Below, one piece after another: positions 7,527 to 51,868 of a stretch of 64,000 nucleotides of DNA. Source of the stretch: an uncultured archaeon (GTDB lineage: Archaea; Aenigmatarchaeota; Aenigmatarchaeia; QMZP01; QMZT01). The stretch lies in the NCBI GenBank assembly GCA_964346665.1, contig CAYFVC010000026.1, positions 18,197-82,196 of the forward strand, given 5' to 3'. Every line of letters starts with the position of its first letter. Within the stretch, counting starts at the first letter, position 1. The notes under the pieces were generated by a model, which was not told the origin of the DNA, made no database searches, and was given only the letters and a program-made list of their open reading frames with translations. Position numbers and translations under genes: made by a program.

Positions 7527-8030
7527 TTATTCTTTTTTTCCAGCCTTTTCTCGTTTCAGCATATTCTTGAGCTTTCCGTCTATCTCTTCGCTGTATTCGA
7601 TTTCGAGGGATTTCCTGTAACTTTTCTTCGCTAGCTCGTAATCCTTTATCTTTTCGCTAGCCTTTCCTATAATGTTGTAACACCATTGTACAATGTACAT
7701 GGAATTGGATTTAGAAAAATATTTTTTCGCTTTCATCGCGAAGTTTATCGCATTGTTGAAGTCGTTGAAAGCGAAAGAATGATCAGCAGCACATTTGTAG
7801 GACCATCCAGCTTTGAAATTATTCCCCAGTTTCAGGCTGTATCTTGCCGCATCCATGGAGAAGTCCACCGCTCGCTTGTCGTTAATCGAGCCCGCAAGCC
7901 TAGCGGACTCCTGATATAGAGAAACCGCTTTCGAATAATCCTCTCTATCAACCGCTCTCTTTGCTTTCTTCACCAGCTTTTCTATTTCCTTTTCTATCCT
8001 CTTCCTATCTTTCTCATTCGTTTCAGGCAT
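7527..8030 (-). CDS. TPR-like repeat protein
   Basis: Repeated A/Y/W-rich helical 34-residue-like units (..AVSLYQESARLAG.., ..KAGWSYKCAADHSFAFNDFNNAINFAMKA..); charged N-terminus. Confidence 0.45.
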   Translation of the reverse strand: MPETNEKDRKRIEKEIEKLVKKAKRAVDREDYSKAVSLYQESARLAGSINDKRAVDFSMDAARYSLKLGNNFKAGWSYKCAADHSFAFNDFNNAINFAMKAKKYFSKSNSMYIVQWCYNIIGKASEKIKDYELAKKSYRKSLEIEYSEEIDGKLKNMLKREKAGKKE

Positions 8031-8074
8031 AACAATAAAATATTAACCTAATAATTCAAAAACCTTATTCTGGC

Positions 8075-9211
8075 TTACATCCCAAGCTGTTCTCCCCATT
8101 CCTCGTATTTTCGAATGGTTTTCTCGTCCACCGTTCTCTTCACCTTGGAGAAGGAGCGATCAAAATCTTCCTTTGTGAGCGATCTGTAATTCATGGCATA
8201 TTTTTCGATTTGCGCAGGCGTCAGCTCCTCAAGCTTCGGGTTTTGTTCCCTAACCATGAGCATTATCGCTTCCCTGCAGACACTTGCTATGTCCCTTCCA
8301 GAATACCCCTCGCCCATTTCAGCTAGTTTATTTATTGTGATCTCAGCAAGCGAAACCCCTTTCAAATGGATTTCAAAAATCTGCTTTCTTGCTTCCAAAT
8401 CCGGGAGGGGAGTGTAAATCCTTCTTTGGAACCTCGAAACCATAGCATCGTCGAGGTCCCATGGTTTGTTCGTGGCCGCTATCAGTATGACCTTTTCATC
8501 GGGTTCGGTGGCGAAACCCTCTATCTCCATGAGCAATTGGGAGACAACTCTCCTTGTGGATTCTTGAATGCCCGAATCCCTGCTAATCATCACAGAATCA
8601 AACTCATCCATGAAGATTATCGAAGGCTGGCTCTTTCGAGCCTTTTCGAACAACATACTCACTATTTTAGAGGACTCCCCGAAGTACTTCGAAAGCAAAG
8701 TGGAAGTTCTCGCCTCGAAAAAGTTAGCTTGCAGGGTGTTGCTCGCCGCTTTTGCCAGCAATGTTTTCCCGGTTCCCGGAGGGCCGTAAAGAAGAATGGT
8801 TCGGGGGGCTTCCACGAAATCTGGTTTTTTGTGTATCATGGGGAGTATTATTGCTTCCTTTACCTCCCTTTTCACTTCCTCCAAACCCCCTATATCATCC
8901 CACTTAACCGTGGGTTTTTCTGAGATAACCATACTGTCTATCGCCTCCGGAGACTTCGCACGTGTATAAGGGGTGGTCGAGCTAATCACATTGCTCATTG
9001 TCTCGTATTGGGAGGCAGATTGAAAGAAAGATTCTGCGTATTCCCTCGGGGCGACATAAGCAAGCCTTCTGTAGATCGAGGCCGCTCGTTGGTAATGAGC
9101 TACCGCCTGCTTGGATTTCCCCTCTGATTCGAGCTTTTTCGCGGTATCGATTTCGTGCTGTAATTGTTGCTTTAAAAGTGAATGCCTAAGTTCTCCCATA
9201 AATATCACCAA
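8075..9211 (-). CDS. cdvC: Vps4-type AAA+ ATPase with N-terminal MIT-like domain (CdvC-like)
   Basis: Walker A ILLYGPPGTGKT, Walker B IIFMDEFD, and an N-terminal three-helix MIT-like segment (..QAVAHYQRAASIYRRLAYVAP..). Confidence 0.8.
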   Translation of the reverse strand: MVIFMGELRHSLLKQQLQHEIDTAKKLESEGKSKQAVAHYQRAASIYRRLAYVAPREYAESFFQSASQYETMSNVISSTTPYTRAKSPEAIDSMVISEKPTVKWDDIGGLEEVKREVKEAIILPMIHKKPDFVEAPRTILLYGPPGTGKTLLAKAASNTLQANFFEARTSTLLSKYFGESSKIVSMLFEKARKSQPSIIFMDEFDSVMISRDSGIQESTRRVVSQLLMEIEGFATEPDEKVILIAATNKPWDLDDAMVSRFQRRIYTPLPDLEARKQIFEIHLKGVSLAEITINKLAEMGEGYSGRDIASVCREAIMLMVREQNPKLEELTPAQIEKYAMNYRSLTKEDFDRSFSKVKRTVDEKTIRKYEEWGEQLGM

Positions 9212-9221
9212 AGAGAAAAAA

Positions 9222-9842
9222 TCACTCTGTTTCCTTCTCTGCGGATTCCTCTGTCATCTTCTTCGCTTTCTCTCCAGCTATCTTCAAAGCTGTCTCTTCA
9301 TCGACTTTTTCTAAATCGTCTATCGCATGTATAAGTTCCTGTGATTCCTCATCGACCAAGACCTCTTCTTTTCCGAAAACCCTTTCCAGTTTCTCCTTTA
9401 CCTTGTCCAGCCTTCCCTCTTCCAAAGCTTCCTTTACGTCCTCGTCCGTTAGAACCTCATTGAGCTTGTTCATGTCACAATTAAGTATATCTTTTGTAAG
9501 TTCTGACTCTTTCTCCGTTTTCTCTCTTTCTTTCATGGCCTGTACGAGCATGATGAGCTGGAGTTCGCGCAGGAAGTGACAAGCTTCCATCTGCTTCGTT
9601 CGAGATTCGAGCCTCAATGCCTTTATCTTCTGCACATTCAGCATTTTCAGCGTGGTGGGCTGCCCTTTCGCTTCAAGCATTAACTTCTGGATTTTCTCCG
9701 CTATGCCTTTCAGATCATCCGAAATCCTCTCAACTTCCTTTTCTATCCTTACCCTCTCCTTAAAGAGATCGTCGTCCTTTATCGAAAAAACATCCTTCCC
9801 GAACCTCGACATGATGAATTTTTTAAGATCCATAATCCTCAC
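9222..9842 (-). CDS. cdvB: ESCRT-III / Snf7-family protein (CdvB-like)
   Basis: About 200 aa, predicted helical, basic N-half and acidic C-half (..EEVLVDEESQELIHAIDDLEKVDEE..) as in Snf7/CHMP proteins; lies directly upstream of the Vps4 gene on the same strand. Confidence 0.55.
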   Translation of the reverse strand: MRIMDLKKFIMSRFGKDVFSIKDDDLFKERVRIEKEVERISDDLKGIAEKIQKLMLEAKGQPTTLKMLNVQKIKALRLESRTKQMEACHFLRELQLIMLVQAMKEREKTEKESELTKDILNCDMNKLNEVLTDEDVKEALEEGRLDKVKEKLERVFGKEEVLVDEESQELIHAIDDLEKVDEETALKIAGEKAKKMTEESAEKETE

Positions 9843-9887: not shown

Positions 9888-12800
9888 ATGAAAAAAGCGT
9901 TTCTACTCTCTCTTGACGCTATAGCCGCCATAACATTGTTATTTGTGATCTCGCTGTTTCTAGCAGGTTTGTCATTCACTTATGCCTCTCCAGAACTACG
10001 CTATCAAAGGTATTATTACGCAGGGAAAGACTTGGCAAATATCCTTGAAGAAACGAGAATAAAAGCAGTTTCCGATATAGTGAATCTCGGTGACTACGGA
10101 TTGGGTGAGGATGATATGAACAGGACTATCTTGGATGTAATAGGCTCTTTCTGGGCAGAAGGAAACATAAGTTACGCGAGGAATCTCACGAAGGAGATAT
10201 TCGAAAATGTCATGAACAGGACAGGACTCAGTTACGAGATTATGTTCGATGGGGACTCGATATACTCGAGTGGGGAATATTCGGACTTTCTTTCGAGACT
10301 CTCCACGATAGTTTCGGGTTATGAGAAAACCAAGCCTGTGAACGGTTATCTTGCAAAGGTTTACCTCACAAAGGTTAGTAAGTCCAATTCATATTTTTCG
10401 TATTTCGGAGGTTATGTGGGCGACGGTAACGTAACGAAAATCATAATGCTTCCTTCGGACGTGAACGTAACTAATTTTTACATGGAGATGAATGTGGGAA
10501 ACAACTTCACACTCTACATTAACGGGAACTTTTCTGGGAACTACGAAAAAACGAAAGTTAACTTCTCCGCGGACAACTGGACTGTATGCTCCGTAACGAT
10601 CAACCCCGCGTATTGCTCGTATTTCACAGGAGGGAACAACACGGTGGAGATAAAATTCAAGGAAAATGTAACCAACTACATAGGAGGAGGGTATTTGAAA
10701 ATCAAATACAAAACCTCGGAGTTGACAGAAGGTGAATACATTTACAGCGGGGATACAAGGATTGGCAAATATTATTTCCCCGGGATAAATGGCCTGATCA
10801 ACCTCTATTCCTCATTTTACATACCCGGTACGCTGAACAACATAAGCGTACGCCTCCACTACTTCAACAACCTGAGCTTTAACAATGTAGGGATCCCTGT
10901 GTATTTCGTGATAGGAGCGGAAGAAGTCTATAAAAGCAACGAGACCGGAGAACAAGACATATATATAAACGATTCTAACATATCCGAGATCTTCGGAGGT
11001 AAAACAACTCTAATAGAAATATTAAGCAACGCCACGATCCCAATAAGATTCGGAACGGAAACATTCGCTTTCCTAGGAGGTAAGGGCTCTAGCGATTCAG
11101 TTTTAATAACTGATGTTTCGGGGAGTATGAATATGACATGTGATGTTCAAACCACTGCATGCCTACACCCTGACTGCAACTCAGGGACAAGTGGCTGTCA
11201 GAACTGGAGAATAGATGTAGCGAAAGATGTTGATAAGGAATTTGTTGACACCATTATCAACTACACAGGTTGTAGGGTTGGTCTTGTAAATTATTCCACA
11301 AGTGTTCAAGAAACCCATCCCTTAAGCAATGACAGTGCTTCCCTAATATCCCACATAGACGGGTATAGGGCATCGGGGATGACATGTATATCATGTGGTA
11401 TAGCAAGTGCAACGAATATGTTAGTAAATTCAAAAGTCGTTAAAACCGTTATCCCTTCCAAATCATCTTGGCTATACAACACAAGCTTCCCTTCAAGTGA
11501 TCCTCCAGACATTAACGGCACCAATTGGACTTGGCATAACTACACAGATTCAGGATGGAATCAAGGACAGGCGATACTTGGTTTCGAGAATGACCCTTAT
11601 TCCCCGAACATTAACACAAATATAGGAAACAACGGAGGAAATTATTACTTCAGGAAACATTTCAACATAAGCGATCCAAATGATATAGATTTCGGAGAAC
11701 TATACGTCCTTTCTGATGATAACGCTGAAGTTTATCTTAACGGGAATCTAATAAATAACGATACAGAGGAGCACAACGCAACCTATTGGAACAAGGGAGG
11801 GACCCTTTTCTATGATGACTTCGAGAGTTATTACGGGCCTGGAGCATACCAAGTTGACGGAACTGATCTTAACATGTCTCCTGGCTACTGGTTCATAGAT
11901 GACACAGGGGAGGAAGTTTTCATGATGTGTGATCAGTCAGACTACCCATCACATAGCGGAACAGATGTTCTGGTTTTCAGGCAAATGGATTCATATGGTT
12001 ATGCGGAAACTCATTTGAACCTGTCTGGTAAATCGAACCTTGTGTTTTCTTATTGGTGGAGGGCTGGAACCAACCGATTCGAAAGCAGCGAGTACGGTGA
12101 TGTCTGGATATGGGATGGTAGTTGGCAAAGAGTCAGGAGGTATTCCAGAGAGGAAAATTACGGTGAATACCATCACGATGAAATAGATTTATCTGGTTAC
12201 AATATGATAGAGAACTTCACAATAAGATTCGGTTCAAGATCGAGTTATGATAGTGAAAGGTTTTACGTGGATGATGTTAAAATAAGGGAAAGTATAATTG
12301 TGGATAAAACATATCTTCGAAAAGGGGACAACGTCATAGCAGTGAAACTTCGAAATAACGACAATGATAACGCGAAATTCGATCTGGAGCTTAATTTGAC
12401 TATGAAAAGGTATAAGGCGATGTTGGTTATGAGTGATGGGGAGGCGAATAGATGTGTTCCAGGAGTGAGCTGTAGCGGTCTAGCAGATAACCAAGCAATA
12501 GACAAGGCGTGTGAAGCCAGGGATAATTACAGCATAACCGTGTATTCTGTCGCTTTTGGTGATGGAGCAGACATGGACACGTTGGAGAGAATTGCATGTT
12601 GGAATTGTTCTGCGGATGATTGGATCCCTGGCTGCGACAATTTCTACAACAGCTCGAATGCAGAAGAATTGAAGGATATTTACAAGGATATAGCTGAGAA
12701 CATAGCAAATGCGACTTATGAGGCGCAGATTTTCAACATTACCGGGAACATCTCACTGGACAACATTCTCTATCCAGATTCTTTCATCTCGTTCAACTAC

Positions 12801-13640
12801 ACGCCTATTGTCAAATCACTGGAATACGGGGAGATAACTCTAGGGTTTGAATCTCCAAGGTTGAGGGAATCAACAGGCGAAACCATGATAACGGATAACG
12901 AAACGGGAACGAAAGAAGGGTGGTTCATAATTCCGAGTAACACAGAGGTTGTAACAGAGGTTCTTGATTCGAAAATAACCTCGTATTCCTCATTCTACTG
13001 GACAGACAGGTTGTGGGTGAACTCTTCAAACACGCCTAATCAGAATTGGACAAGGGTTTATTGGTTAGGGAACTATTCGGATGATTACGAAGAAGTTGGC
13101 GACCCATATATCATACAGATTCCTCCTAACTTTCTCAAACCTGGAGGTAACAATTCCTTCAAGATAGGGACAGGTATTTATCCGTCCCCTGAAGGTGGTT
13201 TAGGTGGTTCGCCAGATGATAGGGTGATTTACACCATTGGGATTATCGGAGTAACTTTAATAGAATACAGTGATATTTTTCCTAAGGCCAAAGGCTCAAG
13301 ACCAACGATATACTACGATTCGAATGGGGACAACATACCGGAGAGTTCCGTGACCGTGGAAGTGGGACCTGATCCGGATGATGTATTCGATCCTCAGAAT
13401 GATTCAATTGATAACGGATTTATGAAGCTTATGAATGCTTTGAACTTCATAAGTGATCTGAACCCGAATGTTGTTGATCTTAATCACACCAGCTCTGGTC
13501 CTACAGGAACCGGTGACGGCTCTGATAATAATCCGATTGATCTCGAAATCACAGAAGAGGTTGAATTCAAATCGGATTTCATATCCCAGATTCCGTCCAT
13601 GTGGGGTCCTGCTATAATGGAGGTGAGGATATGGGGGTAA
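9888..13640 (+). CDS. Giant (about 1250 aa) extracellular protein with vWA/MIDAS motifs, N-terminal membrane anchor or class-III-like signal, heavily N-glycosylation-sequon-rich
   Basis: MKKAFLLSLDAIAAITLLFVISLFLAG N-terminal hydrophobic segment. DxSGS MIDAS motif (VLITDVSGSMNM) near aa 410 and the second vWA half (AMLVMSDGEAN...TVYSVAFGDGAD) near aa 850. Dozens of N-x-S/T sequons. Confidence 0.7.
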   Translation: MKKAFLLSLDAIAAITLLFVISLFLAGLSFTYASPELRYQRYYYAGKDLANILEETRIKAVSDIVNLGDYGLGEDDMNRTILDVIGSFWAEGNISYARNLTKEIFENVMNRTGLSYEIMFDGDSIYSSGEYSDFLSRLSTIVSGYEKTKPVNGYLAKVYLTKVSKSNSYFSYFGGYVGDGNVTKIIMLPSDVNVTNFYMEMNVGNNFTLYINGNFSGNYEKTKVNFSADNWTVCSVTINPAYCSYFTGGNNTVEIKFKENVTNYIGGGYLKIKYKTSELTEGEYIYSGDTRIGKYYFPGINGLINLYSSFYIPGTLNNISVRLHYFNNLSFNNVGIPVYFVIGAEEVYKSNETGEQDIYINDSNISEIFGGKTTLIEILSNATIPIRFGTETFAFLGGKGSSDSVLITDVSGSMNMTCDVQTTACLHPDCNSGTSGCQNWRIDVAKDVDKEFVDTIINYTGCRVGLVNYSTSVQETHPLSNDSASLISHIDGYRASGMTCISCGIASATNMLVNSKVVKTVIPSKSSWLYNTSFPSSDPPDINGTNWTWHNYTDSGWNQGQAILGFENDPYSPNINTNIGNNGGNYYFRKHFNISDPNDIDFGELYVLSDDNAEVYLNGNLINNDTEEHNATYWNKGGTLFYDDFESYYGPGAYQVDGTDLNMSPGYWFIDDTGEEVFMMCDQSDYPSHSGTDVLVFRQMDSYGYAETHLNLSGKSNLVFSYWWRAGTNRFESSEYGDVWIWDGSWQRVRRYSREENYGEYHHDEIDLSGYNMIENFTIRFGSRSSYDSERFYVDDVKIRESIIVDKTYLRKGDNVIAVKLRNNDNDNAKFDLELNLTMKRYKAMLVMSDGEANRCVPGVSCSGLADNQAIDKACEARDNYSITVYSVAFGDGADMDTLERIACWNCSADDWIPGCDNFYNSSNAEELKDIYKDIAENIANATYEAQIFNITGNISLDNILYPDSFISFNYTPIVKSLEYGEITLGFESPRLRESTGETMITDNETGTKEGWFIIPSNTEVVTEVLDSKITSYSSFYWTDRLWVNSSNTPNQNWTRVYWLGNYSDDYEEVGDPYIIQIPPNFLKPGGNNSFKIGTGIYPSPEGGLGGSPDDRVIYTIGIIGVTLIEYSDIFPKAKGSRPTIYYDSNGDNIPESSVTVEVGPDPDDVFDPQNDSIDNGFMKLMNALNFISDLNPNVVDLNHTSSGPTGTGDGSDNNPIDLEITEEVEFKSDFISQIPSMWGPAIMEVRIWG

Positions 13641-13653
13641 GGAGGGAGATGAT

Positions 13654-14307
13654 ATGAAAAAATTAATCATTTTGTTGGTGATGGTTTTTTTGATTCCAAA
13701 CGTACTAGCGCAGGAAAACGAGGTGTGCCTTGTTTATTTCACAGGGAGCTTGTGTGGGGATGAATGCGGGTTAACTAACACCTTCATGAACGGCCTTATG
13801 GGTGAGTATTCGGCTATCTTAACAGCAATAACATATGATATTGACGCCAGTCAGGAGAATAAGGATGTATTTGAAACATATAGGGGGACGTATGGTCTGC
13901 CTTCTGGCGTGCCTCTCGTCCTATTCGGAGAGGATGATTACCTGCTGGGGAAGAATGATATTTACAGAAATACAGAAAGGAAAATATTAATTTTCTTGGG
14001 CCAGGAAGGAACCAACTGTCCTCTTGAGAGCGGGTATGTCCCTCCAAGCGATCTGGATCCTAGTGATCTCCCAGGACAGCCAGAGGTTTTCGAAAGTGAG
14101 CAGGATGAAATAGTAGAGGAGGAAACTGAGGAAGATGTAACCGAGGAAGAAACCGTCCCTGAGGGGACTGGAATAGACATAGTATCGGTCATCGAGGACG
14201 CGGCGAAATCCGAATTTTTCCCCGAGGTTGCATTGGTTACGGCGGTGTTCATCATACTAATATTTGCGATTAGCATTGCATTTGGAAGGAAAAGTAGGAT
14301 AAAATAG
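13654..14307 (+). CDS. Secreted protein with N-terminal signal peptide, acidic linker and C-terminal TM anchor with basic tail (possible sortase-type sorting signal)
   Basis: MKKLIILLVMVFLIPNVLAQ signal peptide. Cys cluster CLVYFTGSLCGDECG. C-terminal ..FFPEVALVTAVFIILIFAISIAFGRKSRIK. Starts 14 nt after the giant protein gene. Confidence 0.5.
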   Translation: MKKLIILLVMVFLIPNVLAQENEVCLVYFTGSLCGDECGLTNTFMNGLMGEYSAILTAITYDIDASQENKDVFETYRGTYGLPSGVPLVLFGEDDYLLGKNDIYRNTERKILIFLGQEGTNCPLESGYVPPSDLDPSDLPGQPEVFESEQDEIVEEETEEDVTEEETVPEGTGIDIVSVIEDAAKSEFFPEVALVTAVFIILIFAISIAFGRKSRIK

Positions 14308-26366: not shown

Positions 26367-26648
26367 ATGGTTAAAATCAAGGAAAAGAAAATAACCAAAA
26401 CTATTCGTAAAGACTATAGACACCAAATAGAAAACCCCGCAGAAAGTGGTACTCTTGCTCTTACTAAAACAGGTAATATAAGTTTAAGTGAGCTTTCTGC
26501 AGGCTTGGAAAAAGATAATCCTGGAGTTAAAAAAGTATATTTAGACAGAGTAGGCAGAAGGTATCAAAAATTGAAAATAGTATTTGAATTTGAAAAGGGC
26601 TACAAGGGAGAGTTTGATCTTTCATCAATAAAAGAATATGTAAAATAA
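26367..26648 (+). CDS. Small hypothetical protein, first gene of a pilus-like operon
   Basis: 93 aa, basic N-terminus; sits after a divergent AT-rich promoter region and 37 nt upstream of the pilin-like gene. Confidence 0.4.
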   Translation: MVKIKEKKITKTIRKDYRHQIENPAESGTLALTKTGNISLSELSAGLEKDNPGVKKVYLDRVGRRYQKLKIVFEFEKGYKGEFDLSSIKEYVK

Positions 26649-26684
26649 TCTCAATTTAATTAAATCCTCGTTCATATTATTTAT

Positions 26685-27878
26685 ATGAGGGGTCAGTTTT
26701 ATTCTGCCATAGCGATCGCAATCACCATACCCATTGTTTTATTCATCTCCTATTATGTCATGTCCCATGGAGGGGAGACCGGGATATACGAGAATATCGT
26801 TGCGGATCAGATACACCAAGTTGAAAGGAGCGTTGAAAAAGATTTCGGAAAAGCAATGGTAACGTCGGGGAAGCGAGCGTTAATAGCAGGAGATGATTAC
26901 GTTGTGATGAACGGGGAACCGATTAGTGATGCAATTTCCGGAATCAAAGAACTCATGGAAAACGGGACGGTAGAAGGGAATGAGAGCCTGCTAATGGTCA
27001 ACAACACCCTAATCAACTGGACGAATAAGATTCTTGATGTTCCTGTGAATTTTTATGTTAACATAAGTTTCGCAAATCTCGAAATTTCGAACTACAATTC
27101 ATTCAACATACACGCATCCGCCGATCTTAACGTTTCGGTTGCGGATGAGTTGGGGATCGCGAGAATTGATAAAAGGGATATGCATTACGAAACGTTGGTA
27201 CCTGTTAAGGGGGCGGAAGACCCCATATTCACCCTGAAAACAAACGGTGTTCTCACAAGAAGCATAAAGATTTCGCCATATCCGTACAGAGCTAAAAAAC
27301 TCGTGGAAGGCGGGGCGAATTCTTCTGGGAACTGTTCGGGTGAGGTAACATTCAACAAATCAGAATGCGATTCGAAAATATTGGTTGCTGAGAATATAAC
27401 AGGAGTGAGTTTCGGGTGTTTTTCGGGGTTCGTCATAGAGGATTCCGTTGATCTTAGCGGGAGTTCGGATTGCTATGTAACGGGGAACGGAAGCGCGATT
27501 GAGATAATAAGCCAGGCAATTTCAGAAACGAATTATGAAAAAGTCTATATCGACAGTGATACGAAATCTGTTTGGCACCTGCCCATACGGGAGGAAATCG
27601 ATAGTAAATATTATTTCCCCGGGAACGGGCCGAACTTCCTGAAAAGGTTGGAAGGCGATCTGAATTCCTCCTCCGATGGGATGGAAACATTCGTGAACCT
27701 CCCCGAATTCCAGAGCTATCAATTACCGATAAAGGAGGATGTGATTTCGCTTGCCTATATATATTTCAGAGACCAAGACTATATTGGGTATCCAGTAAGG
27801 GGCTTGCAAAGCTGGTTTAGGACAAACCAAACGTTTGCGGACAAATACGGTTTAACGGAATTGTGTGATGGATGTTGA
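26685..27878 (+). CDS. Large pilin-like protein with class III (type IV prepilin-like) signal peptide
   Basis: MRGQFYSAIAIAITIPIVLF: a K/R-G-Q then hydrophobic stretch typical of archaeal prepilin signals. The remainder is rich in N-x-S/T sequons and beta-like. Confidence 0.55.
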   Translation: MRGQFYSAIAIAITIPIVLFISYYVMSHGGETGIYENIVADQIHQVERSVEKDFGKAMVTSGKRALIAGDDYVVMNGEPISDAISGIKELMENGTVEGNESLLMVNNTLINWTNKILDVPVNFYVNISFANLEISNYNSFNIHASADLNVSVADELGIARIDKRDMHYETLVPVKGAEDPIFTLKTNGVLTRSIKISPYPYRAKKLVEGGANSSGNCSGEVTFNKSECDSKILVAENITGVSFGCFSGFVIEDSVDLSGSSDCYVTGNGSAIEIISQAISETNYEKVYIDSDTKSVWHLPIREEIDSKYYFPGNGPNFLKRLEGDLNSSSDGMETFVNLPEFQSYQLPIKEDVISLAYIYFRDQDYIGYPVRGLQSWFRTNQTFADKYGLTELCDGC

Positions 27879-28539
27879 TATGGTCAACAAACGGAAAAAA
27901 GAGGGGTATGTGGATTTGAATAAGGTTGGGGGGAAAGATTCTGGTGAAAAAATGGCCGAGGAACTCGAAAGTAATACCCCTGATGAAAATGAAAAGAAAA
28001 CGGAAACTAAACCAAAGAGGAAGAAATCACGTGCAAAGGTGAAGACGCACCTCGAAACAAATATTGACAGATTATATGAACTGGTCAGGAAAAAAGGGTT
28101 TGTAAAGGTGGCTGAAGTTTCCAAGGAACTCGGGATTGATAAAGATCAGATTGAGGAATGGGGAAGAATACTTGAAGATCACAAACTCTTGAAACTGCAT
28201 TATCCTCCTGTTGGAGATCCCGTATTTGTATTGAAGAAATTCAAATCTGATACAAAAGAGGTAAAAAAGTTGAAAGGGAGGAAGAGATTGAAAGCTGGTA
28301 AAAAGGCTTTTTTGATCAACCTTGTCATCCTGTTTGGATTCATTGGGTTCGTTGCCTACTATACTAGAATAATCCCTTTGAGATTTCCACAAGTAGATTC
28401 TTTTTTCATTGAAATATCAAATATTCTCAAAACACCAACAATTCGAATTTCTTACGTAGAAGCTTATTTAGGAGTGATTATTATAATAATTATAGTAGTT
28501 GCCTTAATTTTAATAGTAAGAAGGTGGAGAAGGAAATAA
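27865..28539 (+). CDS. Hypothetical protein with HTH-like domain and two C-terminal TM helices (pilus operon component)
   Basis: ..IDRLYELVRKKGFVKVAEVSKELGIDKDQIEEWGRILEDHKLL.. resembles a wHTH. C-terminal hydrophobic helices end in RRWRRK. Overlaps the neighbours by 14 nt and TAATG. Confidence 0.5.
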   Translation: MMDVDMVNKRKKEGYVDLNKVGGKDSGEKMAEELESNTPDENEKKTETKPKRKKSRAKVKTHLETNIDRLYELVRKKGFVKVAEVSKELGIDKDQIEEWGRILEDHKLLKLHYPPVGDPVFVLKKFKSDTKEVKKLKGRKRLKAGKKAFLINLVILFGFIGFVAYYTRIIPLRFPQVDSFFIEISNILKTPTIRISYVEAYLGVIIIIIIVVALILIVRRWRRK

Positions 28540-30074
28540 TGGTGAAAAAGAAGGGGAGAAAGGTTGCGAAAAAAAAAGTCGAGGAAAAGAAAGTTAATCT
28601 TAAGGTTTTAGAAGAATACACCGTTCTCTATCAGAATGTCGCGGCCAGTGTTAAGATTTACCAAGACCCGGATGAATACGTTCCAGTCTACGATATCAGG
28701 TATCCTAAAATAGAGGAAGCTACCAGGGCGGTTCTCGATTCTATAAGGGAAAAGATAGTTACCGAGCTTGCTTTTCGCACGGATGATATTCTTAACCCGG
28801 AAGAGACGGGCAAGATCAGAAACAAATTCATAAACAAGGCCACGAATCTTGTTGAAGAGGAGCTCCCCAATATTTCCAAAAGTGATGCGGGTATACTTGT
28901 TGGAATCCTCTCGCAGGAATCCCTAGGCTTGGGACCGATAGAGTTCATGCTCAAGGATCAGGGCCTTGAGGAAATAGTAATCAACGGCCCCAAGGAACCT
29001 GTATGGGTATATCACAGGACGTATGGGTGGCTGAAGACGAGCATAACCGTTAAAGATGATGCAAAGGTTTACAATTACGCAGCTCAGATAGGGAGGAGGG
29101 TCGGGACGCAGATAACAAATCTCAGTCCTTTGATGGATGCATATCTAACAACGGGGGACCGTGCGAATGCAACGTTGTTCCCGATATCATCAGGGGGTAA
29201 TACGCTCACCATAAGGAAATTCGCAAGGAGGCCGTGGACCATAACTGACTTCATAGAAATGAATACCATATCCCCTGAAGTCGCTGCTTTTCTATGGCTG
29301 GCGATACAATTCGAAATGAACATTGTGTGTACGGGAGGAACGGCCTCAGGGAAAACCTCATTCCTCAATGTGTTGACCATGTTCATACCTCCCACCCAAC
29401 GAATTATTTCAATAGAGGATACAAGGGAAATACAGCTGCCACCTTTCCTTCACTGGGTTCCGCTCACTACAAGGCCTCCTAATATTGAAGGGAAAGGGGA
29501 GGTTACGATGTTGCAATTGATGATCAATGCCCTTAGGATGAGGCCTGACAGGATGATAGTGGGGGAAATACGAAGATCGAAGGAGGCGGAAGTCTTGTTC
29601 GAGGCTATAAATACAGGGCATTCTGTATATTCCACACTTCACGCAAACACCGCAGAGGAAACCTTGAAACGTTTGATAAACCCACCGATAAACATACCCA
29701 TCTCTTTGCTCACATCGCTTCAACTGATAGCGGTCATGCACAGGGACAGGAGGAGGAATATAAGGAGAGTTTTGGAGATATCAGAACTCATACCTTCGGG
29801 TGGCCTCGCCGAAATGAAAATCGAGCTTAACAATATTTTCAGGTGGGTTCCATCAAAGGATCGTATTATGGAGTGGGGGAAATCGAACAGGGCATGGAAC
29901 GATATAAAACTTTTCTCGGGTATGGGTGAAGACGAGGTGAAGAGGAATCTGGAGGAGAAAAAGAACATACTGCTTTGGATGGTGAAAAACAATATAAAGG
30001 ACATAGACAAGGTTGGAAGGATAATATCAGATTATTATAAAAATCCAGAAAGTGTCCTTAGAATGATAAAATAA
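28539..30074 (+). CDS. Type IV pilus / archaellum-type secretion ATPase (FlaI/UpsE/TadA family)
   Basis: Walker A CTGGTASGKTSF, Walker B/Asp box (..RMIVGEIR..), His box; the N-terminal domain resembles FlaI. ATG at 28539 overlaps the previous stop (TAATG); the ORF-track start at 28524 is GTG. Confidence 0.85.
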   Translation: MVKKKGRKVAKKKVEEKKVNLKVLEEYTVLYQNVAASVKIYQDPDEYVPVYDIRYPKIEEATRAVLDSIREKIVTELAFRTDDILNPEETGKIRNKFINKATNLVEEELPNISKSDAGILVGILSQESLGLGPIEFMLKDQGLEEIVINGPKEPVWVYHRTYGWLKTSITVKDDAKVYNYAAQIGRRVGTQITNLSPLMDAYLTTGDRANATLFPISSGGNTLTIRKFARRPWTITDFIEMNTISPEVAAFLWLAIQFEMNIVCTGGTASGKTSFLNVLTMFIPPTQRIISIEDTREIQLPPFLHWVPLTTRPPNIEGKGEVTMLQLMINALRMRPDRMIVGEIRRSKEAEVLFEAINTGHSVYSTLHANTAEETLKRLINPPINIPISLLTSLQLIAVMHRDRRRNIRRVLEISELIPSGGLAEMKIELNNIFRWVPSKDRIMEWGKSNRAWNDIKLFSGMGEDEVKRNLEEKKNILLWMVKNNIKDIDKVGRIISDYYKNPESVLRMIK

Positions 30075-33254: not shown

Positions 33255-34064
33255 TCATTCCTCAAAAAAGAAATGCTCCAGAGCTTCCTGAATGTTCTCC
33301 ACTTCTATTACCTCTATCCCCGCTTCTTCGGAGATGTCTACTTTCTTCGGGATCTTCTCAGTCGTGCAGATTTGGGCTGGGCCTATCTGTTCGCAATATC
33401 TCCTGGTTTTGTACATGACTTCCTGCGATTGTAAGAGAGGGACGAGGAACAAGCGAGCTCCCACATCTTTCGCGGCCTTAGCTTTCGGAAGGATTTGCCC
33501 TACTGGTCCTATTGTTCCGTCATGATTGATAGCCCCTGTTATCATAACTTTGGGGTCGATCATTTTATGTTCAAGTGCTGCAATAGTCGCGATGGCAAGA
33601 GATGCCCCGGCAGATGGACCTTCGACAGCTGTTGCGTTCGTTTTTATAGTGTATATTATGTCATAATTCGAGAGATTTATACCGGTTATGTTGGATGCAA
33701 CCTTGCTTGAAGTACGAATAGAGTTTTGCGTATCTGTCCAGAACAGGAGTTTGTCTATATTCGCGAGAACTCTTCCCTCCCCCGGGATTATCTGGACCGT
33801 GAGCACGGTAGTAATCCCTTCTCCTTCCTCGGTGATAGCCGGTATGATTATCGAAGCGAAAGAAACATTTGAATAAGATTCATTGACAACGTAAGGAATA
33901 TAAGTTACGACATTCGCAGTTCTTGTCTCATTGTGATAAATGATGATGGTCTCGTTCATACCCCCTATGTAATAGCCCACGTAAAAAACAAGCATTGCGA
34001 AAATCAGGTAGCTAAGTATTTTTAGCCACCTCCTCTCTTTGCGGGGTCTTCTGTATCTATACAT
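33255..34064 (-). CDS. Membrane-anchored Lon-like S16 peptidase domain protein without AAA+ module
   Basis: Ser-Lys dyad context GPSAGASLAIATIAAL ... ILPKAKAAKDVGARLFLVP. A single N-terminal TM helix. Start set at the ATG at 34064 (MYRYRRPRK...). Confidence 0.7.
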   Translation of the reverse strand: MYRYRRPRKERRWLKILSYLIFAMLVFYVGYYIGGMNETIIIYHNETRTANVVTYIPYVVNESYSNVSFASIIIPAITEEGEGITTVLTVQIIPGEGRVLANIDKLLFWTDTQNSIRTSSKVASNITGINLSNYDIIYTIKTNATAVEGPSAGASLAIATIAALEHKMIDPKVMITGAINHDGTIGPVGQILPKAKAAKDVGARLFLVPLLQSQEVMYKTRRYCEQIGPAQICTTEKIPKKVDISEEAGIEVIEVENIQEALEHFFFEE

Positions 34065-34138
34065 GCGAACACAATCGGTATATAATTGTTTTTTAACTTT
34101 TATATTATCCTTTGGCGTAAAATGTAGAAGGTTAATTA

Positions 34139-34146
34139 ATTTAAAT
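34139..34146 (+). promoter_or_regulatory. TATA-box-like element (TTTAAATA) about 25 nt upstream of the predicted SRP RNA 5' end
   Basis: An AT-rich octamer at the spacing archaeal promoters use relative to the start of the GC-rich structured RNA. Confidence 0.3.
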
Positions 34147-34168
34147 ACATGCTCTCGGATTATTAAAT

Positions 34169-34447
34169 GCAGGGAGCCTCCAGCCACGGGGTTAGGCCTA
34201 CCGTGCCTTCGGGCGGCAAATGGTCTTCATGGCCGGTTGTAGTTTACGGGTGGCTCTGTGATAGCCTGCAAGCCCAACCTGCCAACTGAGAAGCCTTGTC
34301 CTTCAGGGTCATCTTCATGGTGAACTGGGTCAGGGTCGGAAAGTTCGACACGTTTAGCGTGTCTTTCCCGAAAGATAGCAGCCCTAAACTATGTTGTTGA
34401 TGCTTGAAGGGTTGCAGGGTGGAGGAGGTAGATTGGATAACTTGCAG
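34169..34447 (+). ncRNA. ffs: Signal recognition particle RNA (7S RNA)
   Basis: GC-rich non-coding island about 280 nt long. Helix-8-like motif GGUGAACUGGGUCAGGGUCGGAAAG...GAUAGCAGCCCUAAAC (compare the conserved GGUCAGGUCCGGAAGGAAGCAGCC). Long-range complementarity CCUGCAAGCCC / GGGUUGCAGG (helix 5). Ends at an oligo-T run (34448-34452). Confidence 0.65.
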
Positions 34448-34534: not shown

Positions 34535-35413
34535 ATGCTGCCCTTTTACAAAAAACTATCCCTGTTTTTCTTCGGGGAATTGGTCGAGAAGTACATTGAT
34601 TCTTTCAGGCCCTTGGAACCCCATATAAAAAATGCAAACATAAAGATATTGCTGAAGACTTGGGTAAGTATGCTGTTCTTCTCAACATTCATTTCATTCG
34701 TAGTTTCGCTTATTTCGATATACACCATCCTTTCGTTTCTTATAGAGGTTGAATTTTACATATACATATTCAGTGTTATTTTCTTCCCAGTGTTTGTAGC
34801 ATCAATAGTTTTCATAATCTTTTATCTCTATCCCGTTCAGATGGAGAACGCGAGACGAAAATCCATAGAGAACAACCTCCCCTTCGCTATAACCCATATG
34901 GCGGCAATCGCCTCATCCGGGATACCCACTGAGTTCATGTTCGAACTGCTCACAGGCTTCAAAGAATACGGGGAGATATCAGAAGATTCGAAGTTGATAA
35001 TGAGGAATATGAAGACCTTTGGGATGAGTTCTGTTGATTCGCTAAAGGATATCGCTGAGCGGACGCCCTCGCAGGATTTCAGAGAAATTTTGCTAGGGAT
35101 AGTGTCAACCGTAGAATCCGGGGGGAATATCGTTGAATATTTGAGGGAAATGGCGGACAAAGCTTTATTCAGTTACAGGATCAAGAGGGAAAAGTATCTG
35201 AAAACGTTGTCAACGTATGCTGACATATACACCGCCCTGCTGGTCGCTGCCCCACTCATGATGCTTTCTTTGCTAGCGACGATGAGTATAATAGGCGGGA
35301 GCGTGATGGGTCTGACCATAAATGAATTGATGTTGTTGATAACGTGGGTCATACTTCCGGTGCTTAACGTTGGTTTCCTCATATTCGTACACACTACATA
35401 TCCGGGTGTTTAA
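34535..35413 (+). CDS. FlaJ/TadB-like pilus-assembly platform protein, N-terminal-type half (one T2SS-F domain)
   Basis: Membrane protein with a cytoplasmic T2SSF-like domain (..NNLPFAITHMAAIASSGIPTEFMFELL...SKLIMRNMKTFGMS...ILLGIVSTVESGGNIVEYL..) flanked by TM helices. Confidence 0.65.
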   Translation: MLPFYKKLSLFFFGELVEKYIDSFRPLEPHIKNANIKILLKTWVSMLFFSTFISFVVSLISIYTILSFLIEVEFYIYIFSVIFFPVFVASIVFIIFYLYPVQMENARRKSIENNLPFAITHMAAIASSGIPTEFMFELLTGFKEYGEISEDSKLIMRNMKTFGMSSVDSLKDIAERTPSQDFREILLGIVSTVESGGNIVEYLREMADKALFSYRIKREKYLKTLSTYADIYTALLVAAPLMMLSLLATMSIIGGSVMGLTINELMLLITWVILPVLNVGFLIFVHTTYPGV

Positions 35414-35414
35414 A

Positions 35415-36266
35415 ATGGAGATGAGCAAAACATTCGTGTTTGAAGTCATTTTCATAGTCTTAGGGATCACGCTTCTGGCCCTTAACTTCCTTTTCATATC
35501 TGTTGTCTTTCCCTTCATAGCACCTCTTATCAACGTGCTGGGAGCGCTGATAGCGATCATCCCGCCATTTCTAATTTTTTACGGAAGGTATATGGTAAGC
35601 AGGGAAATAGAGGAGCAGTTCATAATTTTCATAACAGATCTCACGGGATCGATAGATTCCGGGATGACGTTGCCCATCGCTCTGAAACATGCCTCAAGAA
35701 AGGATTACCGTTCGCTAACGAAATACGTCAAGGAAATAGAGAGTAAGGTTGAGTGGGGAGTTCCGTTCGAAAAAGCACTCAAGATATTCTCTGACAAGGT
35801 GAGGTCCATGCCCATAAAAAGATCCGTGAGCACGATAATAGAGACTTATAAAGTCGGGGGTAAGATTTCCGATACGCTGCGTGCGATAGGACAGTCCCTG
35901 ATCGAAATAAACAAAATAAAGCAGGAACGTTCAGCCTCGGTGCAAGCGCAACTCGTGACTTCTTATTTGATATTCTTCGTTTTTATTTTCATTTTGTTGA
36001 TCTTGAAAACTTTTTTAATACCTGCCCTGGGAACGATGGAGGCTCCCGCACTCGGGGAGGTGACAGGGGAACCAACTATCCCCGCGGAACTTTACACGCA
36101 GACCTTCATAAACTTCATACTCGTCCAAGGATTCTTCGCCGGTCTCGCAACCGGTAAGATGGCGGAGGGTTCGCTAATGGCAGGATTGAAACACAGCATA
36201 GTTCTGATAGTTATAGGGTATACGATTTTCTCGCTTCTAGGTCAGTTCGAAATAGCAATGTTTTAA
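35415..36266 (+). CDS. FlaJ/TadC-like pilus-assembly platform protein, second half (one T2SS-F domain)
   Basis: Second T2SSF-like domain (..FITDLTGSIDSGMTLPIALKHASRKDY...VKEIESKVEWGVPFEKAL...IETYKVGGKISDTLRAIGQSL..). ATG at 35415, one nt after the TAA of the upstream gene, in a different frame. Confidence 0.65.
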   Translation: MEMSKTFVFEVIFIVLGITLLALNFLFISVVFPFIAPLINVLGALIAIIPPFLIFYGRYMVSREIEEQFIIFITDLTGSIDSGMTLPIALKHASRKDYRSLTKYVKEIESKVEWGVPFEKALKIFSDKVRSMPIKRSVSTIIETYKVGGKISDTLRAIGQSLIEINKIKQERSASVQAQLVTSYLIFFVFIFILLILKTFLIPALGTMEAPALGEVTGEPTIPAELYTQTFINFILVQGFFAGLATGKMAEGSLMAGLKHSIVLIVIGYTIFSLLGQFEIAMF

Positions 36267-45104: not shown

Positions 45105-45866
45105 CTATCTCATCAGCCAGCCGAACAAGCGAAAACCCCAAGGTATTTTTGGGGTATATTCCTCTCCGATAAGCGAAGCTGCTATCGACTTTATGTGCTG
45201 TGCTGCAGGTGATTTCGGATTGTAAGAAACGACAGGCTCTTTTAAAGCTATCGCCTTTCGAACTTCCCTGTCTTCTGGGATTTTCCCTATCACGGGCAAA
45301 CCGAGCATTTTTTCTATGTGATCTATAGGGACTTCGTGTGATTCCTTTTTTATCCTGTTCACAACCACTCCTAAATTATGAGTGGTGTACTTGTTTGCGA
45401 TAAGGCTGAGTTTGAGTGCATCAGTTATCGCGGGGAGTTCGGGGTTGGTTACGGTTATCAATTCGTCCGCTGCCTCTATTGCTGCATGTGAATCCTTTCC
45501 GAGCCCTGCAGGAGAATCGATCAGTATGAAGTCGTTTCCCTCAATTAGTTTGTAGAAGATATTGATGTATTCATAGGATTTCACGTCCCTGATCTTTCTC
45601 ATGGATATGTCTGCGGGGACTATTTTAAAACCTGTTTTATGCATATAGGTCACGTCATTTATCCTCGCCCTTCCCTCAAACACATCGTGTAATGTTTTAG
45701 GATACAGGTGCATGCCCAAGTGAATCGCAAGGTTAGAAGTGGTGAGATTTGAATCCAAGGCAACGACTGACTTCCCGTATTGCGCAAGAGCAGAAGAAAG
45801 GTTCGCGACAAGTGTTGTCTTCCCTACGCCACCTTTTCCAGAAGATATTGTAATTATCCTCGACAT
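45105..45866 (-). CDS. minD: MinD/ParA-family P-loop ATPase (archaeal MinD-like)
   Basis: Deviant Walker A ITISSGKGGVGKTT and MinD-like switch regions; 253 aa. Confidence 0.85.
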   Translation of the reverse strand: MSRIITISSGKGGVGKTTLVANLSSALAQYGKSVVALDSNLTTSNLAIHLGMHLYPKTLHDVFEGRARINDVTYMHKTGFKIVPADISMRKIRDVKSYEYINIFYKLIEGNDFILIDSPAGLGKDSHAAIEAADELITVTNPELPAITDALKLSLIANKYTTHNLGVVVNRIKKESHEVPIDHIEKMLGLPVIGKIPEDREVRKAIALKEPVVSYNPKSPAAQHIKSIAASLIGEEYTPKIPWGFRLFGWLMR

Positions 45867-50866: not shown

Positions 50867-50952
50867 GTCCCCTCACAATTGGATTAAATCTTTGTTGATT
50901 TATATTTAAAAATATATATTAAGTAAGCTAAACTTATATATAATATATGGGC

Positions 50953-51426
50953 ATGAAAGGGATATCTCCAGTGATAGCTGCTGTTTTGCTGGTAGCGATA
51001 AGCGTTGCTGTTGGGGTGCTGTTATCATCATGGATAACCCATTGGGTGAGTACAAGAACACAACAAGCGAGTAGTGCATGCGTGACCAACACGAATTACA
51101 GGATTGACTCAGCGACTTTCGATTCGTCCACAAACAACCTCACCATCTTGCTGACAAACTTGGGAAACGTTGGACTGTACGGATTCAGCGTTCAAGTGCT
51201 CAACGGGACAAATGTGGAAGTTTACAATTCGACCGATCAGAAGGTGAGTATAAGTCCGAACGTAACCGAAACGAACCCCCTGAAAGAGCAGAGATCGGCT
51301 ATTATAATAATAAACATGAATGGTGCTTACCACTCAGGTCTTGGAAGCACCGCTGATCATATAAAGGTTCTGAACAAGGCATGCCCGACATTTTCAGCTG
51401 AAACCTTGACTATAATAAAGGAGTGA
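50953..51426 (+). CDS. Archaeal type IV pilin-like protein (class III signal peptide)
   Basis: MKGISPVIAAVLLVAISVAVGVLL: a short basic leader, G, then a long hydrophobic helix as in crenarchaeal-type pilins; 158 aa with N-x-S/T sequons. Confidence 0.6.
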   Translation: MKGISPVIAAVLLVAISVAVGVLLSSWITHWVSTRTQQASSACVTNTNYRIDSATFDSSTNNLTILLTNLGNVGLYGFSVQVLNGTNVEVYNSTDQKVSISPNVTETNPLKEQRSAIIIINMNGAYHSGLGSTADHIKVLNKACPTFSAETLTIIKE

Positions 51427-51430
51427 TTTA

Positions 51431-51868
51431 ATGAGAAAGGGTATATCTCCCCTGATCGCAGTCATAATGCTTATAGCATTTACTATGATTGTGGCAGGGA
51501 TTCTCGCTGGTTGGGCCACACAGTTCGTAACACAGAGCCGTTCAGAGCTTCAATTCTGTGCGAGGGCGCAGCTGCTCATACAGAGAGCGTACTACGATAA
51601 CTCCACCCAGGAACTCACACTTGCTTTGTTCAACACAGGCGATGTCCCTTTGAGGGGTTTTGCCGTTAGGCTTGTGTACCAAAATGAATCAATAACCTCA
51701 ACCAAATTCGAGAACCTGAACATCTCTTATCAGGACATAGAAACTGTGACTTTAACAACAGATGATACCTTGAAACAGGTTGTTGTCCAGTCACTGGAAT
51801 GCAGGGGAGCACAAGATTTGGTAGGCAGATATGATATACAGGGTTTGGGATTCCGACCGTATGGATAA
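51431..51868 (+). CDS. Archaeal type IV pilin-like protein (class III signal peptide), second copy
   Basis: MRKGISPLIAVIMLIAFTMIVAGIL; 4 nt downstream of the first pilin gene. Confidence 0.6.
   Translation: MRKGISPLIAVIMLIAFTMIVAGILAGWATQFVTQSRSELQFCARAQLLIQRAYYDNSTQELTLALFNTGDVPLRGFAVRLVYQNESITSTKFENLNISYQDIETVTLTTDDTLKQVVVQSLECRGAQDLVGRYDIQGLGFRPYG

Follow-up and report, generated by a model that had tools for sequence, protein, structure and literature searches.

A probable type IV filament system broken into three pieces in an Aenigmarchaeota genome, with a prepilin-like protein family and a winged-helix module beside the motor ATPase

When a few genes resemble a pilus operon and the platform gene is not among them, do they form a real functional unit or are they neighbors by chance? 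This question is raised by positions 26367 to 30074 of a stretch of 64,000 nucleotides (the window) from contig CAYFVC010000026.1 of an uncultured archaeon of the Aenigmarchaeota, a tiny symbiont. A preliminary description had read there a four-gene pilus-like operon coding for a small protein of 93 amino acids (p93), a prepilin-like protein of 397 amino acids (p397), a protein with a helix-turn-helix (HTH) domain and transmembrane (TM) helices, and a FlaI-type ATPase. We call the third one wH/TM, for its predicted winged helix (wH). Our analysis indicates that p397, wH/TM and the ATPase stand as a conserved unit, and that p93 does not belong to it. The region probably codes for the central part of a pilus-like, type IV filament system of Aenigmarchaeota (DPANN) that is broken into three pieces and in which wH/TM would most likely be a partner of the ATPase. 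The features on which the argument rests are the following.

26367-26648, plus strand: p93, a Lys-rich open reading frame (ORF) of 93 aa, an orphan
26655..26664, plus strand: palindrome TTTAATTAAA, resembling a TATA box, about 25 nt before the p397 ATG and 3' of the p93 stop
26685..27878, plus strand: p397, prepilin-like, a putative modular minor pilin by its leader, helix and predicted fold
27868..28539, plus strand: wH/TM (the HTH/TM protein of the preliminary description), with a predicted winged helix and two TM helices
28539..30074, plus strand: secretion/assembly ATPase of the GspE/FlaI/CpaF superfamily (PF00437), 511 aa from the ATG at 28539
34535..35413, plus strand: first half of a FlaJ/TadC-like platform, one T2SSF domain (PF00482, 1.1e-13), matching the N-terminal half of the ArlJ/FlaJ models
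35415..36266, plus strand: second half of the FlaJ/TadC-like platform, one T2SSF domain (PF00482, 1.8e-16), matching the C-terminal half of the ArlJ/FlaJ models
9888..13640, plus strand: giant prepilin-like vWA protein of 1250 aa, starting MKKA and then FLLSLDAIAAITLLFVISLF (VWA PF00092, 2.1e-07)

The four ORFs of the proposed operon and the overlaps between them were verified in the sequence. The stop codon of p397 (TGA, 27876-27878) lies within TGTGATGGATG, which also offers two starts for wH/TM (GTG 27865 and ATG 27868; ATG 27880 is a further candidate), and at the TAATG junction the wH/TM stop (TAA, 28537-28539) shares its final A with the ATG of the ATPase at 28539. In an independent public assembly of essentially the same organism the genes are called with 93, 397, 223 and 511 aa. 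To place them in context, one genome per GTDB species was scanned with two peptides, those best conserved in the wH core. This gave 37 loci, mostly from Aenigmarchaeota and some titled Woesearchaeota, Micrarchaeota or Nanoarchaeia, and all the ORFs of the related loci (cited below by an L number where needed) were searched with the window proteins. In 21 species-level loci the p397 gene came immediately before the wH gene, and in two others it was one gene away. The ATPase gene came directly after the wH gene in 35 of the 36 species loci that could be assessed (L036 was excluded, its contig ending too early), and in L039 a MinD-wH gene is interposed before the ATPase. Since the three-gene order and the wH-ATPase pair recur this often, chance falls far short of explaining the adjacency of p397, wH/TM and the ATPase. 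The preliminary description had named absence of the HTH/TM gene from homologous loci as a sign of fortuitous adjacency, and what we found is the opposite, the gene adjoining the ATPase across several DPANN groups. Two loci do weigh against so tight a link. L035 (183-896) is the only locus to break the wH-ATPase pairing: its wH protein has no TM helices and stands after a p397 fragment and before an unrelated 403-aa protein, with no ATPase. In L005 the distance between the wH gene and p397 is 2 kb, again without the ATPase.

The comparison also bears on the platform. The layout of the window is repeated in seventeen Aenigmarchaeota loci (L007-L023), where the genes for TrmB and a ligase are on the minus strand, p397, wH/TM and the ATPase on the plus strand, and then comes an inverted block (DUF655, Rpb4, L21e, Pus10 and so on up to a Lon_C-domain membrane protein) followed by both platform halves. 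The preliminary description was right that the only FlaJ-like genes lie 4.5 kb away beyond a housekeeping block, but the platform is not missing. Because the two halves directly follow the orthologous ATPase in distant relatives (L025, L029, L032, L034, L037, L039 and L043), the distant FlaJ-like genes are the cognate platform, set apart by the inverted housekeeping block in the lineage of the window. Four of these loci (L025, L032, L034 and L043) carry a homolog of the 1250-aa vWA protein and a p397-like gene in the same operon as the wH protein, the ATPase and the platform halves, and have small pilins with Gln directly after the Gly (QxxxE type) in or beside it. The order in the operons of distant relatives is giant vWA prepilin, p397, wH protein, ATPase and the two half-platform genes. 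The contiguous operon of L039 has in the place of p397 only a 301-aa prepilin-like ORF with an MKG leader, undetected by the p397 profile. In these same four loci, and in L001/L002 and L005/L006, the homolog of the giant protein comes immediately before that of p397 or lies one gene away; in L001/L002 a 278-aa gene stands between the two, and neither L001/L002 nor L005/L006 has the ATPase nearby. Most parsimoniously, the genes for pilins, vWA prepilin, p397, wH protein and ATPase and the two platform genes (a and b) once formed a single ancestral operon, which was dispersed in the lineage of the window.

Two observations go with this comparison. In some Aenigmarchaeota (L027, 9530-11765, and L030, 9530-11825, and also L024, L026 and L031) a protein made of a CBS pair and the wH module, with no TM helix, overlaps the start of the ATPase. 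That ATPase closely matches the one of the window (E about 1e-220), and there is no p397 or platform gene within 10 kb, so that the motor pair can exist apart from the rest of the system. The second concerns the membrane protein with a Lon protease C-terminal (S16) domain coded at 33255-34187 on the minus strand of the window. It is found just upstream of, and divergent from, the platform genes in 16 of the 17 Aenigmarchaeota loci with the window layout, and a functional link to the pilus system is possible.

The kind of system is indicated by the motor and the platform. The ATPase, described before as FlaI-type, gives a strong match to PF00437 (5e-35, 121 bits over a cutoff of 24.9) that confirms a T2SSE or FlaI-like secretion ATPase, and its translation shows a Walker A motif (GGTASGKTS) and the Asp and His boxes. 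Against the NCBIfam model of the archaellum FlaI/ArlI (NF058587) it reaches 287.9 bits, below the cutoff of 550, and its best matches in the PDB are GspE2 of A. fulgidus (2oap, 3e-72), FlaI (1e-53) and CpaF (1e-53). By these scores it is a member of the T2SSE superfamily and not the FlaI of an archaellum. A canonical FlaJ/TadC/PilC platform protein has two T2SSF domains. Here the two domains are present, split one per gene; the ORF of the second half opens at TTG 35370, with a probable start at ATG 35415, and this half was always paired with the first among the loci examined. It is the T2SSE ATPase with two T2SSF half-platform genes, together with the contiguous operons of the relatives, that identifies the system as a probable type IV filament. 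The window has also a second secretion ATPase (54128-55813, plus strand, 561 aa, T2SSE 2.5e-32) with a PilB3_C-like C-terminus, located beside the RPA and RadA genes and with no adjoining wH or platform gene.

Does the unit include p93, as a translationally coupled operon of four genes with a small pilus component would have it? The gene is on the same strand as p397 and only 36 nt upstream, it is preceded by a TTTATAAAT box of its own and by AAGGTGAT, which closely resembles a Shine-Dalgarno site, and it is annotated in the independent assembly, so that p93 may be a real lineage-specific gene, though orphan. However, a full HMMER scan of 1.84 billion representative proteins returned only p93 itself and one weak match to an unrelated repeat protein, and no homolog was present in any of the 43 related loci. 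The spacer between the ligase and p397 genes measures 50-100 bp in the closest relatives versus 426 bp in the window, and when the DNA was compared with that of relatives both ends of the 426 bp were conserved while the coding part of p93 was not. The final 40 nt or so before the p397 ATG do align, and TTTAATTAAA with a downstream ATATTATTTATATG is kept upstream of p397 in the window and in L007-L017. We consider TTTAATTAAA the likely TATA box of a leaderless or short-leader transcript, so the unit of p397, wH/TM and ATPase is probably driven by a promoter of its own. Scans for sigma-70 promoters and intrinsic terminators gave no excess over shuffled controls, such scans being uninformative for an archaeon. 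Since p93 is an orphan, absent from the related loci and placed upstream of the conserved promoter element of p397, it is outside the pilus unit. The four-gene version is already contradicted by conservation, and we regard it as very improbable. It looks as if the p93 gene had come in between the promoter regions of the ligase and p397 genes, which are divergent and conserved. An origin as a degenerate duplicate of a p397 segment, which weak tblastn matches could suggest, was rejected, the likeness being not significant (hhalign probability 2.6%).

What kind of protein is p397? It starts with a leader of three residues, MRG, followed by QFYSAIAIAITIPIVLFISYYV, a hydrophobic helix opening with QFYS. 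The homology search gave 70 proteins, nearly all of 394-408 aa; none carries a Pfam domain, and all the named sources are Aenigmarchaeota, in agreement with the lineage of the window. When 26 and 60 members were aligned, conservation set in precisely at the motif [KR][GA]-Q-[FVM]-Y-[ST], in which Q4 and Y6 do not vary. The leader ranges from 3 to 16 residues across the family, the [KR][GA] junction is kept whatever its length, and a hydrophobic stretch of about 20 residues follows the motif. This is the arrangement of a class III signal peptide (a short basic leader ending in [KR][GA], then about 20 hydrophobic residues), as had been proposed for p397 at the beginning, and the [KR][GA]Q motif is conserved across 60 homologs. 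In distant members at other DPANN loci the [KR]G and the hydrophobic helix are kept and the Gln is lost.

The AlphaFold2 model of p397 is confident (pLDDT 90.3, pTM 0.79). An N-terminal helix (2-29, continued at 33-76) is followed by a sheet of three long antiparallel strands (123-173), and a compact C-terminal alpha/beta domain completes the chain. The predicted structure has in this way the long N-terminal alpha-helix packed on an antiparallel beta-sheet that characterizes the pilin fold. The protein contains 13 N-glycosylation sequons (3.3 per 100 aa) versus 0.4-0.6 per 100 aa in the neighboring cytoplasmic ATPase and ligase, a density six- to eight-fold higher, and two conserved cysteines (C217 and C263). 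Both traits fit an extracellular protein. For a major pilin p397 is too large and modular. Size, modularity and predicted fold agree with the earlier suggestion of a tip or adhesin subunit, and the best reading is a prepilin-like protein acting as a minor, tip or adhesin-associated subunit, for which we infer the cleavage and the location at the tip.

Two results count against this. There was no match to p397 in Pfam or NCBIfam (E <= 0.1), including the pilin models (Pilin_N PF07790 and the archaeal pilin models of NCBIfam), and since no curated pilin model matched, p397 represents a new sequence family. In the same way, a crude scan for the GxGD[..][KR] motif, the only search made, found no prepilin peptidase in the window, as the preliminary description had noted for the operon, or in the fetched loci. 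When the model was compared with the PDB by Foldseek only low-TM, non-significant matches to PBP5 and NTF2-like folds appeared, and sequence and profile searches of the PDB gave nothing meaningful. One could then propose that p397 is not a pilin but a surface glycoprotein, anchored by its N-terminus (type II signal-anchor) or secreted by Sec and co-expressed with a pilus motor, for example a cell-envelope or host-contact protein that never enters the filament. The sequons and cysteines would suit such a protein too, but with the junction kept throughout the family and a pilin-like predicted fold we hold this improbable.

A candidate partner for p397 is found 13 kb upstream. The 1250-aa vWA protein has a class-III-like N-terminus (MKKA, then FLLSLDAIAAITLLF) and 47 sequons (3.8 per 100 aa), and it belongs to the same system, putatively as an adhesin partner of p397. 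A homolog of 1427 aa (L001, 2855-7138) contains about six repeats of the form HISGDVYAVAYR..DG that look like beta-propeller blades; if that is what they are, the analogy with PilY1 (vWA plus propeller) is strengthened. Directly 3' of the giant gene there is a 217-aa protein (13654-14307, plus strand) with no family match, which combines a Sec-type signal and an N-terminal part rich in Cys (CLVYFTGSLCGDECG) with an acidic linker that leads to a TM anchor at the C-terminus. In other genomes the position after the giant prepilin is occupied by unrelated-looking membrane proteins of 243-284 aa. The other side, at 7527-9842 on the minus strand, codes for a TPR protein, a coiled-coil protein of 206 aa that matches no family, and a Vps4-like AAA ATPase with AAA and Vps4_C domains. 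The gene of the coiled-coil protein and that of the giant vWA prepilin form a divergent pair in the window, in L001/L002 and in L005/L006, with Vps4 nearby in L006, and no ESCRT-III or PspA relative of the coiled-coil protein was found in Pfam or the PDB. This group may be an ESCRT-like module tied to a surface-protein gene.

As for the major pilins, the window codes for two small pilins in tandem (50947-51426 and 51431-51868, plus strand) that begin with MKG before ISPVIAAVLLVAISV and MRKG before ISPLIAVIMLIAF, and match Pilin_N (PF07790) with E values of 0.0067 and 3e-05. By their sequence this pair would be the candidate major pilins, with a signal of a different type from that of p397. No small pilin of the QxxxE type was found in the window, where the only small pilins are these of the Pilin_N type at 50.9-51.9 kb.

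Taken as a mechanism, p397 would enter the membrane through its N-terminal hydrophobic helix, be cut after Arg-Gly by a prepilin peptidase encoded elsewhere, and be built into the filament as a low-abundance minor or tip subunit, probably working with the 1250-aa vWA prepilin (9888-13640). An analogy for this pair is offered by bacterial filaments, where priming and capping are the work of minor pilins and of proteins of the PilY1/GspK type. The ATPase, as a hexamer, would power the assembly on the two-piece platform (34535-36266). The cytoplasmic winged helix of wH/TM, most likely a dedicated partner of the ATPase, would dock on it, and its two TM helices would hold the motor at the membrane beside the platform. 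In other lineages the docking module, fused instead to domains of the CBS, MinD, DUF2226 or coiled-coil kind, would make the motor responsive to regulatory signals.

The role of wH/TM is the part of this scheme with the most serious competitor. In this protein a winged helix (residues 62-124 approximately) is joined to two TM helices by a linker rich in Lys, and the tails at both ends are basic. Its family is fast-evolving, with a core of about 60 residues (T-x-ID-x-LY...IEEWG-x-ILE-x-H-x-L-x-LHYPP-x-GEP) flanked by low-complexity tails rich in Lys and Arg and followed by the two hydrophobic helices. The core of the AlphaFold2 model has pLDDT values of 94-98 and a canonical winged-helix topology, and the helices are placed at 145-166 and 196-222. 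Searches of Pfam and NCBIfam gave only weak, sub-threshold HTH matches (Sigma70_r1_1, Fe_dep_repress and MntR), the profile search of the PDB gave only TM and low-complexity noise, and no sequence match was found to the canonical accessory families FlaH/KaiC, TadZ/CpaE-MinD and FlaG/F. The earlier picture of a winged HTH domain fused to two TM helices, distinct from FlaH, FlaG and TadZ, is in agreement with the predicted structure and with the lack of any curated match above threshold.

Such a protein could be a membrane-tethered transcription factor, that is, a one-component regulator like ArnR/ArnR1 or ToxR/TcpP, that binds the pilus promoter (for instance the palindromic TTTAATTAAA region) on a membrane-associated cue, so that the adjacency to the ATPase reflects co-regulation only. 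Several facts speak for it, and some of them against a docking role. The winged helix is structurally indistinguishable from DNA-binding domains of ArsR/MarR regulators, its nearest folds, the tails at its flanks are strongly basic, and the promoter of the operon contains a palindrome. Furthermore ArnR, a membrane-bound HTH regulator with two C-terminal TM helices, controls archaellum/pilus genes (PMC6396743), and membrane-bound regulators are recurrent in archaeal type IV pilus (T4P) loci (PMC4858521). However, the surface that should contact DNA is acidic. The net charge of helix 3 averages -3.1 over 37 members (from -5 to -1). The invariant charged residues are all acidic (D67 and E103), 89% of the members have Asp or Glu at the wing tip, and no basic residue is conserved. 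An ArnR-type protein would combine an HTH of the HTH_27 type, a HAMP or sensor domain and two C-terminal TM helices. The winged-helix fold and the two TM helices are present in wH/TM, but there is no match to PF13463 or to another regulator family above threshold, a HAMP or sensor domain would not fit in the Lys-rich linker of about 20 residues, and outside the cell there is just a short, variable loop. The position of the gene is constant, immediately before that of the ATPase with overlapping start and stop codons, and not at the operon border or divergent.

Also against a regulator is the fate of the module in other loci, where the same position before the ATPase is held by wH modules fused to a CBS pair (L032, L039 and L027/L030; also P0085 and P0125), to DUF2226 (L040; P0116-P0122), to a MinD/ParA ATPase (L039, 10255-11265) or to long coiled coils (L041, P0126), or provided with an N-terminal TM segment (L029, L043). 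Because of the fixed position and overlap, the exchange of fused domains and the acidic character of the would-be DNA-contact surface, docking on the ATPase or anchoring it is moderately favored, and a transcription factor appears less likely. A wider interpretation, which we put forward only tentatively, is that the acidic wH module of about 60 residues is a DPANN-wide docking adaptor not recognized before, a modular control hub for the pilus ATPase whose anchoring or sensing domains (TM hairpin, CBS pair, MinD/ParA, DUF2226 or coiled coils) change from lineage to lineage, working with a host-grasping tip complex of p397 and the vWA prepilin. A stand-alone P-loop ATPase of the MinD/FleN type (MSRIITISSGKGGVGKTT) is encoded in the window at 45105-45866 on the minus strand; ATPases of this type have been reported to accompany archaeal T4P systems.

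These proteins matter in several ways. The wH module is a new accessory module almost always beside the motor ATPase in the DPANN lineages sampled. Bacteria use GspL, PilM or TadZ for tethering and regulating the motor and crenarchaea use ArlX. Should the wH module dock on the ATPase, type IV filaments would have a further, new way of solving this general problem. In turn, p397 and the 1250-aa vWA prepilin are testable candidates for a host-binding tip complex that, if the adaptor interpretation is true, would let episymbionts grasp host cells. And because pilus systems in such genomes can be scattered, classifiers based on the locus will under-call them.

How does this compare with known systems? 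The closest are the Epd-type or System 1 filaments (the Epd pilus of M. maripaludis) and the DPANN versions of subsystem 4A, which share with the window the secretion ATPase and the two-gene platform. Two platform genes are typical of System 1 (Epd-like) and of subsystem 4A in DPANN, subsystems 4A and 4B carry a PilY-like adhesin, and DPANN loci with two platform genes and PilY-like adhesins appear in the census (bioRxiv 10.64898/2026.04.22.720090). Two tadC genes are frequent in clades 1 and 2, and clade 1 is accompanied by EppA (PMC4858521). Also shared with the Epd type are the Gln at +1 after the Gly, seen here in p397 and in the QxxxE small pilins of related loci, and the many large minor pilins with an adhesin-like protein, and filaments of these types are reported from DPANN (bioRxiv 10.64898/2026.04.22.720090; PMC4858521). 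The Gln +1 and the QxxxE pilins point to an Epd-like system, with the caution that two platform genes are found in DPANN subsystem 4A as well. As differences, the operon of the window is split into three places and no EppA gene was found in the window. DPANN T4P islands are known to be full of unrecognisable pilins (PMC6393860).

For p397 the natural comparison is with GspK and other minor (pseudo)pilins of the tip complexes of bacterial type II secretion systems (T2SS) and T4P, and with the modular PilB of S. sanguinis. There is no sequence similarity to them, the archaeal class III leader of p397 has only 3 residues, and its extra domain is predicted as a swivelling beta/beta/alpha-like fold and not the alpha-domain of GspK; a place at the tip would be what they have in common. 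ArnR/ArnR1 of Sulfolobus share with wH/TM the cytoplasmic N-terminal HTH, the two C-terminal TM helices and the linkage to T4P-type genes (PMC6396743). They differ in that ArnR (arCOG05969, PF13463) has the HAMP and sensor domains that wH/TM lacks, whereas in wH/TM the recognition helix is acidic, the gene lies within the operon, immediately ahead of the ATPase gene, and the module is found in other loci joined to CBS, MinD or DUF2226 domains. With ArlX/FlaX (crenarchaeal archaellum), GspL (T2SS) and TadZ/CpaE (Tad pili) the shared trait would be the role, binding of the ATPase and its positioning or regulation at the membrane, and the MinD-type protein with the wH module in L039 fills a TadZ-like position. 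There is no homology to any of them, the only trace being a non-significant match of one wH family member to ArlX over the TM region (E 0.012), and the interaction domain here is a winged helix whose binding is predicted only.

By text search, neither the wH module nor the p397 family is among the accessory components named in two census papers (bioRxiv 10.64898/2026.04.22.720090; PMC4858521), and a literature search for DUF2226 gave no paper. Within the literature searchable, the wH-ATPase pairing and the p397 family are undescribed. The locus is thus ordinary in kind, an archaeal type IV filament locus, and what is new in it is a pilin-like family, a winged-helix accessory module of constant position and the dispersal of the system along the chromosome.

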